Positions 21,726-23,603 of a stretch of 64,000 nt of DNA are shown one piece after another. A program made the translations under genes and the position numbers. This stretch comes from Escherichia coli (GTDB taxonomy: Bacteria; Pseudomonadota; Gammaproteobacteria; Enterobacterales; Enterobacteriaceae). Below the pieces are notes generated by a model. It saw only the letters and a list, made by a program, of their open reading frames with translations. It was not told where the DNA came from and made no database searches. Each line of letters starts with the position of its first letter. Position 1 is the first letter of the stretch. Where the stretch lies: the NCBI RefSeq assembly GCF_003334355.1, contig NZ_QOWP01000018.1; one strand, written 5' to 3'.

Positions 21726-23603
21726 ATGTCTGCATCTTCGGTTAAGCCGTTAAATGTTCAATTACCCGCAATAACCCTTATCCTTTTTGCGCTCTGTGTT
21801 GGGATATTTTGTTACCTCGCACAATGGATGAGTTATGAAGAAGTCGATCAATCCGCACTTATCCATCTCGGCGCTAACGTTGCTTCTCTCACGTTGTCGG
21901 GTGAACCCTGGCGTTTATTGAGCAGTGTCTTTCTGCACAGCAGTGTTTCTCATCTGCTGATGAATATGTTTGCATTCCTGGTGGTGGGGGCAGTGGCGGA
22001 ACGGATACTGGGGAAATGGCGACTCCTGATTATCTGGTTATTCTCCGGCGTCTTTGGTGGGCTCATCAGCGCCTGTTATGCGTTACGCGATAGTGAGCAG
22101 ATAGTCATCAGCGTTGGGGCATCCGGAGCAATTATGGGAATAGCTGGCGCTGCGATAGCAACACAGCTTGCTTCAGGTACGGGCACGCACCATAAAAATC
22201 AGCGGCGAGTATTTTCTCTGTTAGGTATGGTGGCGCTGACACTGTTGTATGGTGCCCGGCAAACAGGAATAGATAATGCTTGTCACATTGGCGGCCTGAT
22301 TGCGGGTGGCGCGTTGGGTTGGCTGAGTGCGCGTTTATCTGGGCAAAACCGGCTTGTTACGGAAGGCGGGATTATTGTTGCGGGCAGTCTTCTTCTTACC
22401 GGGGCTATCTGGCTTGCGCAGCAGCAGATTGATGAATCAGTTTTACAGGTCAGGCAAAGCCTGCGTGAAGCGTTTTATCCGCAGGAGATTGAACAAGAGC
22501 GACGACAAAAAAAGCAACAGTTAGCGGAGGAACGCAACGCCCTCAAAGAAACATTACCCGCTCCGGTAAGTCGTCAACAGGCCAGTGGTGATTTGCTCGC
22601 TGAGATTGCCGATATCCATGATATGGCGATCAGTCGGGATGGTAATACGTTATATGCCGCTATTGAAAACACAAACAGCATTGTTGTGTTCGACCTCGGA
22701 CAAAAGAAAATCCTGCATACCTTTACAGCGCCCATAGCGAAAGAAAAGTCAGTCAAACATTGTGGTGGCTGTAAAGATCAGGGCGTCAGATCGCTGGCGT
22801 TAAGCCCGGATGAAAAGTTGCTTTATGCGACTTCATTTGAAGCGAATGCGTTATCGGTCATTAACGTGGCGACGGGGGAGATTATTCAGTCGATTACCAC
22901 CGGTGCACATCCTGACAGCCTTATCCTCTCGCGTGATGGCAAAAAAGCCTGGGTGATGAATCGCACCAGTAATAGTGTGTCAGCGATTGATCTGGTGACT
23001 TATCAGCATGTGGCGGATATCCCGCTGGAGAAATACGACGGGACGGGGACGAGCGGTAAACCTGGTGCCTGGGTTATGGCACTTTCCCCGGATGAAAAAA
23101 CATTGTTGATACCCGGTATGGTCAGAGGTGACATTGTACGCATCAATACCATCACGCATCAGAAAGAAGACTTTCCCGCAGGTGATGCGCGTGGAACGAT
23201 ATCGGCGATGCGTTTTCGACCTGAAAACGGGGATGTAATTTTTGCCGACAGCCAGGGGATTTCACGTATAAGAGTTGGGGATCAGCAAGCCAGCATTATG
23301 ACGCAATGGTGTAGCAGGAGCGTTTATTCCGTTGAGGGTATTAGCCCGGACGGTCAGTATTTAGCGTTGGTGTCATATGGCTTGCAAGGTTATGTCATCC
23401 TGCTCAATATTAATGTCGGGCAGATTGTTGGCGTTTATCCTGCCAGCTACGTTAATCACCTTCGTTTTTCGGCGGATGGTAGAAAGATATTTGTTATGGC
23501 GAAGAACGGGTTAATCCAAATGGACAGGACGCTCTCGCTTGATCCGCAGGCAGTTATTCGTCATCCCCAATATGGCAATGTGGCTTGTATCCCTGAACCG
23601 TAA
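21726..23603 (+). CDS. Rhomboid-family intramembrane serine protease core (about 7 predicted TM helices) fused to a C-terminal YVTN/YncE-like beta-propeller
   Basis: 625-aa ORF with RBS; rhomboid motifs WRLLSSVFLH..HLLMNMF, GASGAIMG (GxSG Ser) and CHIGGLIAG (His); charged linker; about 40-residue repeats such as LSPDEKLLYATS..., ILSRDGKKAWV..., RFSADGRKIFV... Confidence 0.85.
   Translation: MSASSVKPLNVQLPAITLILFALCVGIFCYLAQWMSYEEVDQSALIHLGANVASLTLSGEPWRLLSSVFLHSSVSHLLMNMFAFLVVGAVAERILGKWRLLIIWLFSGVFGGLISACYALRDSEQIVISVGASGAIMGIAGAAIATQLASGTGTHHKNQRRVFSLLGMVALTLLYGARQTGIDNACHIGGLIAGGALGWLSARLSGQNRLVTEGGIIVAGSLLLTGAIWLAQQQIDESVLQVRQSLREAFYPQEIEQERRQKKQQLAEERNALKETLPAPVSRQQASGDLLAEIADIHDMAISRDGNTLYAAIENTNSIVVFDLGQKKILHTFTAPIAKEKSVKHCGGCKDQGVRSLALSPDEKLLYATSFEANALSVINVATGEIIQSITTGAHPDSLILSRDGKKAWVMNRTSNSVSAIDLVTYQHVADIPLEKYDGTGTSGKPGAWVMALSPDEKTLLIPGMVRGDIVRINTITHQKEDFPAGDARGTISAMRFRPENGDVIFADSQGISRIRVGDQQASIMTQWCSRSVYSVEGISPDGQYLALVSYGLQGYVILLNINVGQIVGVYPASYVNHLRFSADGRKIFVMAKNGLIQMDRTLSLDPQAVIRHPQYGNVACIPEP

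Follow-up and report, generated by a model that had tools for sequence, protein, structure and literature searches.

A Rhom7-type rhomboid protease gene with a predicted beta-propeller domain, present or absent between gltI and lnt of Escherichia coli

Rhom7 of Shigella sonnei (SSON_0610, UniProt Q3Z4D6) has been characterised as an active rhomboid which cleaved a reporter carrying the transmembrane domain (TMD) of TatA, and S133A and H187A each inactivated it (Liu et al., EMBO J 2020, PMC7232013). In the same study, Phobius predicted seven transmembrane (TM) helices, and Rhom7 without TM7 or without its C-terminal domain stayed active on an artificial substrate. Orphan FdnH and HybA were cut when Rhom7 was expressed from a plasmid, and the TMD of HybO was a further substrate. 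At native expression, which was low in S. sonnei, cleavage of HybA and FdnH was undetectable and the glpG rhom7 double deletion had no phenotype (PMC7232013), so that in our view neither a physiological substrate nor a role in quality control has been firmly established. A JBC review of 2025 gives Rhom7 with the 2020 data only. The term 'beta-propeller' does not occur in Liu et al. (PMC7232013), nor does the presence/absence pattern of rhom7 in E. coli, and our literature search for bacterial rhomboids combined with a beta-propeller found nothing relevant.

In the present study, we analysed a stretch of 64,000 nucleotides of E. coli DNA (the window; contig NZ_QOWP01000018.1, assembly GCF_003334355.1), which contains a complete ORF of this type (Table 1). 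Its product was 100% identical to WP_001276769.1 of E. coli ECONIH4, annotated as 'rhomboid family intramembrane serine protease'. Compared with the S. sonnei Rhom7-type protein P0010, 593 of the 625 residues were identical (95%, 1 gap), and 32 positions differed from S. sonnei Rhom7. The published protein (Fig EV1, PMC7232013) likewise has 625 aa, the same S133/H187 numbering and the same layout of seven TM helices plus C-terminal domain, and is collinear with the E. coli ORF from MSASSVKP to ACIPEP. The position between gltI and lnt was shared by the window, ECONIH4 and the S. sonnei contig, and the gene order rihA-gltLKJI-rhom7-lnt-corC-ybeY-ybeZ was common to the window and the S. sonnei contig. 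Judged by sequence and position, the ORF is the same gene as S. sonnei Rhom7, in a sister lineage. According to the initial annotation of the window, no enterobacterial rhomboid with such an architecture was known to have been characterised. This was wrong, and novelty cannot be claimed because the gene is common in Escherichia and was already characterised at gltI-lnt: gene, activity, catalytic residues and deletion variants of the extra domains have been known since 2020. The experiment which the initial annotation proposed, a GlpG-type reporter combined with an S-to-A mutant, is also published for the S. sonnei protein (TatA reporter, S133A, H187A; PMC7232013).

The two neighbours of rhom7, the divergent gltI and the convergent lnt, were also found in genomes without it, and the neighbours of distant homologues were unrelated, which agrees with the earlier statement that no partner gene lies alongside. 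A conserved partner or substrate gene was not seen beside the homologues of Pseudoduganella, two metagenomic contigs, K. aerogenes and L012. When the window was scanned for Rfam families and tRNAs, only sroC, tRNAs and ES036 came up, none of them associated with rhom7. The gene is a stand-alone, non-essential and fairly fast-evolving one on the chromosome.

Table 1. Features of the rhom7 locus in the window (positions are those of the whole stretch).
Feature	Position	Strand	Remarks
Present/absent segment, about 2.2 kb	21517..23735	.	K-12-type genomes: about 190 bp of unrelated sequence instead
Shine-Dalgarno-like AAGGAAG	21710..21716	+	9 nt 5' of ATG; read from sequence, putative
rhom7 orthologue	21726..23603	+	complete ORF, 625 aa plus stop; ATG start, 0 internal stops
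Rhomboid catalytic core, TM1-TM6	21726..22337	+	residues 1-204; PF01694, AlphaFold2 (AF2) helices, alignment to 2NR9
Catalytic Ser133 codon (GASG, TM4)	22122..22124	+	invariant in 17 homologues; matches the GLSG serine in the alignment to H. influenzae GlpG
Catalytic His187 codon (H-x-G-G-x3-G, TM6)	22284..22286	+	invariance, alignment to H. influenzae GlpG
Seventh TM helix	22350..22424	+	residues 209-233; AF2 and hydropathy; leads chain to periplasm (predicted)
Periplasmic helical linker	22434..22553	+	residues 237-276, charged segment 253-275 included; AF2
Seven-bladed YVTN-type beta-propeller	22581..23600	+	residues 286-625; profiles, AF2, Foldseek, phmmer
Cys346-x2-Cys349 pair	22761..22772	+	loop between blades 1 and 2; pLDDT <50 at residues 341-348
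Cys529 codon	23310..23312	+	nearly invariant; proposed disulfide partner of Cys621
Cys621 codon	23586..23588	+	C-terminal tail; proposed partner of Cys529
G+C-rich hairpin	23610..23630	.	between convergent rhom7 and lnt; T-run on lnt (-) side

The rhomboid signature described in the initial annotation was found at every quoted residue: W62-R63, F69-L70-H71, H76-L-L-M-N80-M81, GASGAIMG at 131-138 (with Ser133) and CHIGG at 186-190 (with His187). The Pfam Rhomboid profile PF01694 covered residues 59-201 (model positions 2-140 of 143, E=2.3e-28). In the alignment to 2NR9, the serine and histidine were in register with those of GlpG, H187-I-G-G190-x3-G194 falling on the AAHISGL motif of the H. influenzae protein, which phmmer also retrieved from the PDB at 2.1e-11. 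Across 17 homologues, down to 25% identity, W62, R63, H76, N80, G131-A-S133-G134, H187, G189, G190 and G194 were invariant and H71 nearly so. Accordingly, the tests for the rhomboid family (MEROPS S54) gave the PF01694 profile, the GxSG/HxxGxxxG dyad, the WR motif of loop L1 with the TM2 His/Asn of the oxyanion region, and the six-TM core followed by a seventh TM helix. Two special assignments were rejected. The ORF is not a GlpG paralogue (TIGR04239, 45 vs a cut-off of 250 bits; NF008155, 41.2 vs 335), nor a rhombosortase (TIGR03902, 46.9 vs 84 bits), and a GlyGly-CTERM partner context for the latter was not seen at the rhom7 loci inspected.

The AF2 model (mean pLDDT 81.6, pTM 0.60, with uncertain inter-domain geometry) placed TM helices at residues 15-34, 74-95, 97-122, 132-149, 152-178, 184-204 and 209-233, in agreement with hydropathy, and two further helices at 237-250 and 253-276 after TM7. 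The positively charged residues, as read from the sequence, were concentrated in loops 93-99, 156-161 and 203-209, which are predicted to be cytoplasmic. About seven helices, a periplasmic C-terminus and a short charged linker had been proposed before; the model and the cysteines described below support the first two, and the linker was located at residues 253-275 (QEIEQERRQKKQQLAEERNALKE) and is helical in the model. Downstream of it, the NCBIfam profile of the YVTN beta-propeller repeat, TIGR02276, scored 59 bits (cut-off 27.85) in two stretches. A structure model had been suggested for the blade count, and the AF2 model contains about 27 strands over residues 289-600 (pLDDT mostly 80-96), which fit seven four-stranded blades when counted from its secondary-structure string. 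The best Foldseek match was the YVTN propeller 1L0Q (9.9e-17), and the remaining top matches were all seven-bladed propellers; alignments to G-beta covered the stalk helix plus the propeller. 1L0Q was also the best phmmer match in the PDB (5.3e-25). Since the two profiles and the two phmmer matches score at these levels, the assignment of rhomboid plus propeller is far above chance, and the C-terminal domain of Rhom7 is, as modelled, a seven-bladed YVTN propeller. The fusion is rare, and scattered across Enterobacterales and Betaproteobacteria. The homologues keep exactly two Cys pairs in the C-terminal domain, the first of which (within CGGCKDQG, residues 346-353) is absent as a pair from K. 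aerogenes. Their conservation supports a periplasmic location of this domain, and two disulfides, C346-C349 and C529-C621, probably staple the propeller.

Taken together, we regard it as very likely that the ORF is a Rhom7 orthologue, an inner-membrane 6+1 TM serine protease of family S54 which bears a propeller and acts in membrane-protein quality control. Ser133 on TM4 and His187 on TM6 would form the catalytic dyad within the bilayer and would cut single-pass TM segments with helix-destabilising residues. The protease may thus act in quality control beside GlpG, a role suggested because the published substrates are TM anchors of orphan subunits of respiratory complexes (FdnH, HybA and the HybO TMD). 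TM7 would lead the chain into the periplasm, where a helical stalk of roughly 40 residues would carry the propeller. We infer that the latter could be a periplasmic protein-binding module that picks or regulates native substrates and takes no part in catalysis. That it gates proteolysis or recruits substrates is speculation, and the published deletion showed that it is unneeded for catalysis on an artificial substrate. A more specific proposal, which we put forward tentatively and hold to be less probable than its negation, is that the propeller is the specificity module of Rhom7, which binds the folded periplasmic domains of unassembled subunits of respiratory complexes, or another periplasmic ligand, and presents their TM anchors to the active site. 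The published work is compatible with this proposal, since an overexpressed artificial substrate was the only one on which the deletion of the C-terminal domain was assayed. The dispensability of the domain in that sole assay lends no positive support to the recruitment of substrates.

A search of 5426 complete E. coli genomes revealed rhom7 in 3239 (~60%), at gltI-lnt without exception, and the earlier label 'accessory' was roughly right. In 2186 other complete genomes, K-12 included, an 'empty' allele of ~190 bp replaces the 2.2-kb segment. We rejected the idea that the 'empty' genomes conceal a divergent allele, as blastn in 'distant' mode and megablast retrieved the same 3239 genomes. An IS5-mediated deletion in K-12 was rejected as well: IS5D lies upstream, within an intergenic region that is conserved in the window, and the ~190-bp stretch is separate from it and shared by the 2186 genomes. 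BL21 has rhom7, while laboratory K-12 naturally lacks it. A full-length orthologue of Klebsiella aerogenes occupies the same position with 50-54% identity. Compared with this species, rhom7 reached 52-54% aa identity and the flanking genes 82-91%, indicating that rhom7 evolves faster. In both domains dN/dS was 0.17-0.28. We conclude that rhom7 is old at gltI-lnt and has been lost or inactivated repeatedly.

Such a pattern raises the question of whether rhom7 in E. coli is a decaying, dispensable remnant, the ORF of the window being intact by chance and contributing nothing to fitness. Besides the 2186 genomes without the gene and its rapid divergence from K. aerogenes relative to the flanking genes, this explanation draws on damaged copies: strain 55989 carries rhom7 annotated as frameshifted by a 1-nt deletion at nt 1062, 6 of the 59 sampled carriers (~10%) hold a copy of 1877 nt, and one carrier has an IS1 insertion. 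It would also agree with the lack of a deletion phenotype and the low native expression in S. sonnei, and with a promoter scan which returned no + strand sigma-70-like site upstream of rhom7 (the scan as a whole was no better than shuffles). However, the dN/dS values indicate purifying selection over both domains, the catalytic and structural motifs are all invariant, the full-length ORF has been held at gltI-lnt from Escherichia to K. aerogenes, and ~90% of the sampled carriers retain the full 1878 nt. Decay is thus rather unlikely in our opinion. The absence of the gene from 40% of E. coli together with the 1-nt deletions fits weak or conditional selection.

Less probable still, and only a slight chance in our estimate, is that the propeller is the working part, an enzyme or a ligand- or nucleic-acid-binder (YncE-like, lactonase-like or PQQ-associated), with the rhomboid part a mere anchor and proteolysis incidental. 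Weak profile matches to YNCE (PF21783, E=3.4e-05), Lactonase (PF10282, E=1.2e-04), PQQ_ABC_repeats and hydrazine synthase beta point in this direction, and the rate of evolution does not differ between the two domains, which co-occur throughout the family. However, these matches were restricted to the generic YVTN repeats of blades 2-3, and the equivalog cut-offs were far from reached (34.9 vs 400, 56 vs 287 and 44 vs 560 bits). The first of these values is that of the YncE equivalog NF052280, which matched residues 363-410 alone; orthology to YncE was rejected, and of the 'YVTN/YncE-like propeller' in the initial annotation the YVTN type stands (TIGR02276, 1L0Q), while the likeness to YncE does not go beyond the superfamily. 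Moreover, the invariant propeller residues in the 17 homologues (N317, D362, G393, P396 and N412) are structural repeat positions and form no recognisable catalytic set, and the nearest solved relative, 1L0Q, is a non-enzymatic S-layer module. That Rhom7 is an inactive pseudoprotease (iRhom/Derlin-like) whose core binds clients and whose propeller has the real function is hardly credible: phmmer matches to iRhom1 and iRhom2 (7e-09 to 2e-05) and the undetected cleavage at native expression in S. sonnei could be cited for it, but the E. coli protein has the GxSG serine and the TM6 histidine as well as the WR motif and the TM2 His/Asn, none of which varies among the homologues, and for the S. sonnei protein, with its 95% identity, S133/H187-dependent cleavage refuted it (PMC7232013).

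The gene carries little weight as a discovery, for rhom7 was published in 2020 and is already named in public annotation. What is added here is the assignment of the C-terminal domain as a YVTN propeller, its two conserved Cys pairs and the two-state presence/absence polymorphism at one locus. Researchers on rhomboids gain backgrounds which carry or naturally lack the gene, and a defined domain for work on substrate recognition; how bacterial rhomboids choose their native substrates is the wider question which the propeller touches. If the propeller did act as a specificity module, the roughly 60/40 split between carriers and non-carriers would mirror selection on membrane quality control that depends on the niche.

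Among known rhomboids, Providencia stuartii AarA is likewise a 6+1 TM protein of Enterobacterales with 30% identity to the membrane core of Rhom7, and its substrate, the TatA TMD, is also cut by Rhom7 in the reporter assay (PMC7232013). However, AarA has 281 aa and ends soon after TM7, so that the periplasmic propeller is missing. GlpG (E. coli and H. influenzae; 2IC8, 2NR9) shares the dyad, the WR loop, the TM2 His/Asn and the TM6 HxxGxxxG with Rhom7, and the substrates of the two overlap in HybA and the HybO TMD (PMC7232013). It consists of six TM helices and an N-terminal cytoplasmic domain and lacks a periplasmic domain, whereas Rhom7 has TM7 and the propeller. The surface-layer propeller 1L0Q of Methanosarcina mazei is a seven-bladed YVTN propeller as well (Foldseek, 20% identity over 316 columns of the C-terminal domain). 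Unlike that of Rhom7, this archaeal extracellular module is followed by PKD domains and is not fused to a protease. E. coli YncE (3VGZ) is a seven-bladed periplasmic propeller of the same repeat superfamily, with a local match that spans some 55-75 residues; we found no evidence of YncE-like properties in the Rhom7 propeller. The YqgP/GluP type of Bacillus subtilis, which gave the next-best core matches in our protein search (33-45% identity over 25-40% of the query), likewise combines a rhomboid core, TM7 and a C-terminal extracytoplasmic repeat domain. Its appended domain is TPR, whereas that of Rhom7 is a predicted propeller, and the N-terminal cytosolic domain of YqgP senses metal, its substrate being MgtE.

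The rhomboid gene of the window was an uninterrupted ORF of 625 codons with an ATG start, and a Shine-Dalgarno-like AAGGAAG could be read 9 nt upstream of it. All motifs described in the initial annotation were found in its product and that observation was upheld in every detail (Table), whereas its claim of an uncharacterised gene failed, as this is a common and annotated gene that has been studied by experiment in the E. coli/Shigella lineage. Shigella sonnei has two rhomboids, GlpG and SSON_0610, the latter named Rhom7 after the seven TMDs predicted by Phobius, with Ser133 and His187 as potential catalytic residues (Liu et al., EMBO J 2020; PMC7232013). 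The published Rhom7 sequence (625 aa, MSASSVKPLNVQLPAITL to HPQYGNVACIPEP; Figure EV1 in PMC7232013) was collinear with the window protein. The S. sonnei database protein P0010 was identical to the window protein at 593 of 625 positions, and the order rihA-gltLKJI-[gene]-lnt-corC-ybeY-ybeZ was common to both loci. Rhom7 cleaved an MBP-3xFLAG-TatA(TMD)-Trx reporter, and the cleavage was abolished by S133A and H187A; expressed from plasmid, it also cleaved the TMDs of HybA, HybO and FdnH as well as full-length HybA and orphan FdnH (PMC7232013). Chromosomal expression was too low for detectable cleavage, and double deletion of glpG and rhom7 gave no growth, Biolog, oxidative-stress or T3SS phenotype (PMC7232013). 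Thus, the reporter and mutant experiments initially proposed had already been done. A 2025 review entered Rhom7 (UniProt Q3Z4D6) with the same 2020 data only.

Table. Positions of the features of the rhomboid gene, its product and other parts of the window
Feature	Position	Strand	Remark
Rhomboid ORF	21726-23603	+	
WR	residues 62-63		rhomboid ORF product
FLH	residues 69-71		rhomboid ORF product
HLLMNM	residues 76-81		rhomboid ORF product
GASGAIMG	residues 131-138		rhomboid ORF product
CHIGG	residues 186-190		rhomboid ORF product
Charged segment	residues 253-275		rhomboid ORF product
CGGCKDQG	residues 346-353		rhomboid ORF product
1877-nt copies			carrier-genome matches H64, H75, H87, H89, H94, H98
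ybeL	16479-16961	+	160 aa
rihA	17001-17969	-	
sroC sRNA	20205-20367	-	3' end of gltI; Rfam 170.8 bits
tRNA cluster	30817-31298	-	downstream of ubiF; Gln-CTG, Met, Gln-TTG, Leu, Met
ES036/CssrF match	33624-33666	+	Rfam 41.1 bits, just above the threshold of 37.6

The gene was present in 3239 of 5426 complete E. coli genomes at 93.8-100% nucleotide identity, nearly always as one chromosomal copy, and the carriers included BL21, UTI89, Nissle 1917, ST131 and APEC O1 strains. A sensitive search mode revealed no extra divergent alleles in these 5426 genomes. K-12 MG1655 does not have the gene: a 2.2-kb segment (window ~21517-23735) was replaced by ~190 bp of unrelated sequence, and this 'empty' allele was found in 2186 complete genomes (90-100% identity). 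The two states together accounted for 5425 of the 5426 genomes, indicating a polymorphism with two clean-cut states at this locus. IS5D, annotated between gltI and lnt in MG1655 (4852-6046 of the compared locus L001; window ~21371-21378), was rejected as the cause of the absence, since it was inserted in upstream intergenic DNA common to the window and the 2.2-kb versus ~190-bp replacement was separate and further downstream. By eye, REP-like palindromes adjoined the lnt stop in both alleles (window 23690-23730, e.g. GCCTGATAAGCGTAGCGCATCAGGC; L001 6270-6300), and such repeats may be involved in the indel.

Inactivated copies were also observed. In E. coli 55989 (L007 3501-5377), a 1-nt deletion at gene nt 1062, just past the CGGCKDQG codons, shifted the frame of the propeller; the copy was annotated as frameshifted and labelled a pseudogene by RefSeq. 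A copy of 1877 nt occurred in 6 of 59 evenly sampled carriers, including E. coli W and an O104:H4 strain, and one strain had an IS1 insertion in the gene. Although its loss is clearly tolerated, the explanation that the gene is decaying in E. coli was contradicted by long-term synteny and by dN/dS below 0.3. When the window allele was compared with those of UTI89 and BL21, dN/dS was 0.25 and 0.17, respectively, and was alike in membrane core and propeller. The values for gltI were 0.04-0.05, and corC gave 0 versus UTI89 and was nucleotide-identical to that of BL21. The window protein was 52-54% identical to its counterparts in K. aerogenes and the lineage of locus L012, for which GltI, GltJ, Lnt and YbeY were 82-91% identical. 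These figures indicate that the rhomboid gene is under purifying selection, far more relaxed than that on its housekeeping neighbours. The rhomboid core and the propeller evolve together.

The domain reading first proposed, a rhomboid core plus a beta-propeller, was right: Pfam placed a rhomboid domain at residues 59-201 (E=2.3e-28) and weaker beta-propeller families at residues 290-612, and the YVTN repeat TIGR02276 scored 59 bits against a curated cut-off of 27.85 (NCBIfam). The protein was far under every cut-off of the NCBIfam GlpG, rhombosortase and YncE equivalog models. Against PDB sequences, phmmer matched 1L0Q, a YVTN propeller from an S-layer protein of Methanosarcina (5.3e-25), and H. 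influenzae GlpG (2.1e-11); in the latter alignment Ser133 and His187 stood opposite the catalytic Ser and His, and the WR, His and Asn of L1/TM2 were in register too. An AlphaFold2 model from 17 aligned full-length homologues (mean pLDDT 81.6, pTM 0.60) had seven long hydrophobic helices (15-34, 74-95, 97-122, 132-149, 152-178, 184-204 and 209-233), two extra helices (237-250 and 253-276) and ~27 beta-strands in 289-600, giving seven blades of four strands each. Foldseek matches in the PDB were seven-bladed propellers only, with 1L0Q at the top (9.9e-17) followed by many G-beta subunits, whose N-terminal helix and propeller aligned over 360-380 columns. Because the N-terminus of the rhomboid core is cytoplasmic, the seventh helix would place the C-terminal domain in the periplasm. 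Basic residues, as read from the sequence, clustered in the predicted cytoplasmic loops. The cysteines C346/C349 and C529/C621 (window numbering) recurred in the C-terminal domain of all homologues down to 25% identity, except that the first two were lost together in the two K. aerogenes-type proteins and C529 in one sequence. Such paired keeping and loss would be expected of cysteines that form disulfides in an oxidising compartment. Both the loops and the cysteines support a putative periplasmic location.

The best-supported interpretation is that the window gene encodes functional Rhom7, a protease of the rhomboid family that acts in quality control. Its Ser/His dyad would cleave metastable single-pass TM anchors, and the periplasmic YVTN propeller would sit on a helical stalk, probably stapled by disulfides. 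YVTN-type propellers generally serve as platforms that bind proteins or ligands; for this one, the simplest guess is that it selects substrates or has a regulatory role. No equivalog model supported an independent role for the propeller, whether enzymatic or YncE-like. An inactive pseudoprotease was contradicted by the invariant motifs and the published Rhom7 activity. In the sole published test, using an overexpressed artificial substrate, the propeller was dispensable for catalysis (PMC7232013). The word 'propeller' does not appear in that paper, and a literature search for a bacterial rhomboid with a beta-propeller gave nothing relevant.

Elsewhere in the window, ybeL directly adjoined rihA, whose neighbour in K-12 and in ECONIH4, an E. 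coli strain with an identical rhomboid gene, was hscC. The whole ybeQ...djlC-hscC block, which lies between ybeL and rihA in K-12, appears to be missing, and the window thus does not come from ECONIH4. The tRNA cluster held five genes, versus seven in ECONIH4 (Met, Leu, Gln, Gln, Met, Gln, Gln), and each of the tandem tRNA-Gln pairs seems to be reduced to a single gene in the window. The sroC and ES036/CssrF matches were ordinary E. coli features.

Outside Escherichia and Shigella, orthologues were 50-57% identical, and the gltI-lnt position was kept in at least two of them (K. aerogenes and one enterobacterial contig). Among species-representative genomes, full-length fusions of 26-33% identity occurred sporadically in Budvicia, Cedecea and an unclassified Enterobacterales bacterium, as well as in Andreprevotia, Chromobacterium, Burkholderia/Paraburkholderia and Pseudoduganella; the neighbourhoods of these distant fusions were unrelated. 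The propeller alone matched 21,483 representative clusters (E<=0.001), a very large superfamily in which most clusters were giant multi-repeat surface proteins and only 3 of the best 150 were rhomboid fusions. A rhomboid of Providencia rettgeri PROV023 (L022 4001-5566) matched query residues 15-504, covering the core and much of the propeller. As the characterised AarA of P. stuartii has only 281 aa, some Providencia may carry a long form like Rhom7.
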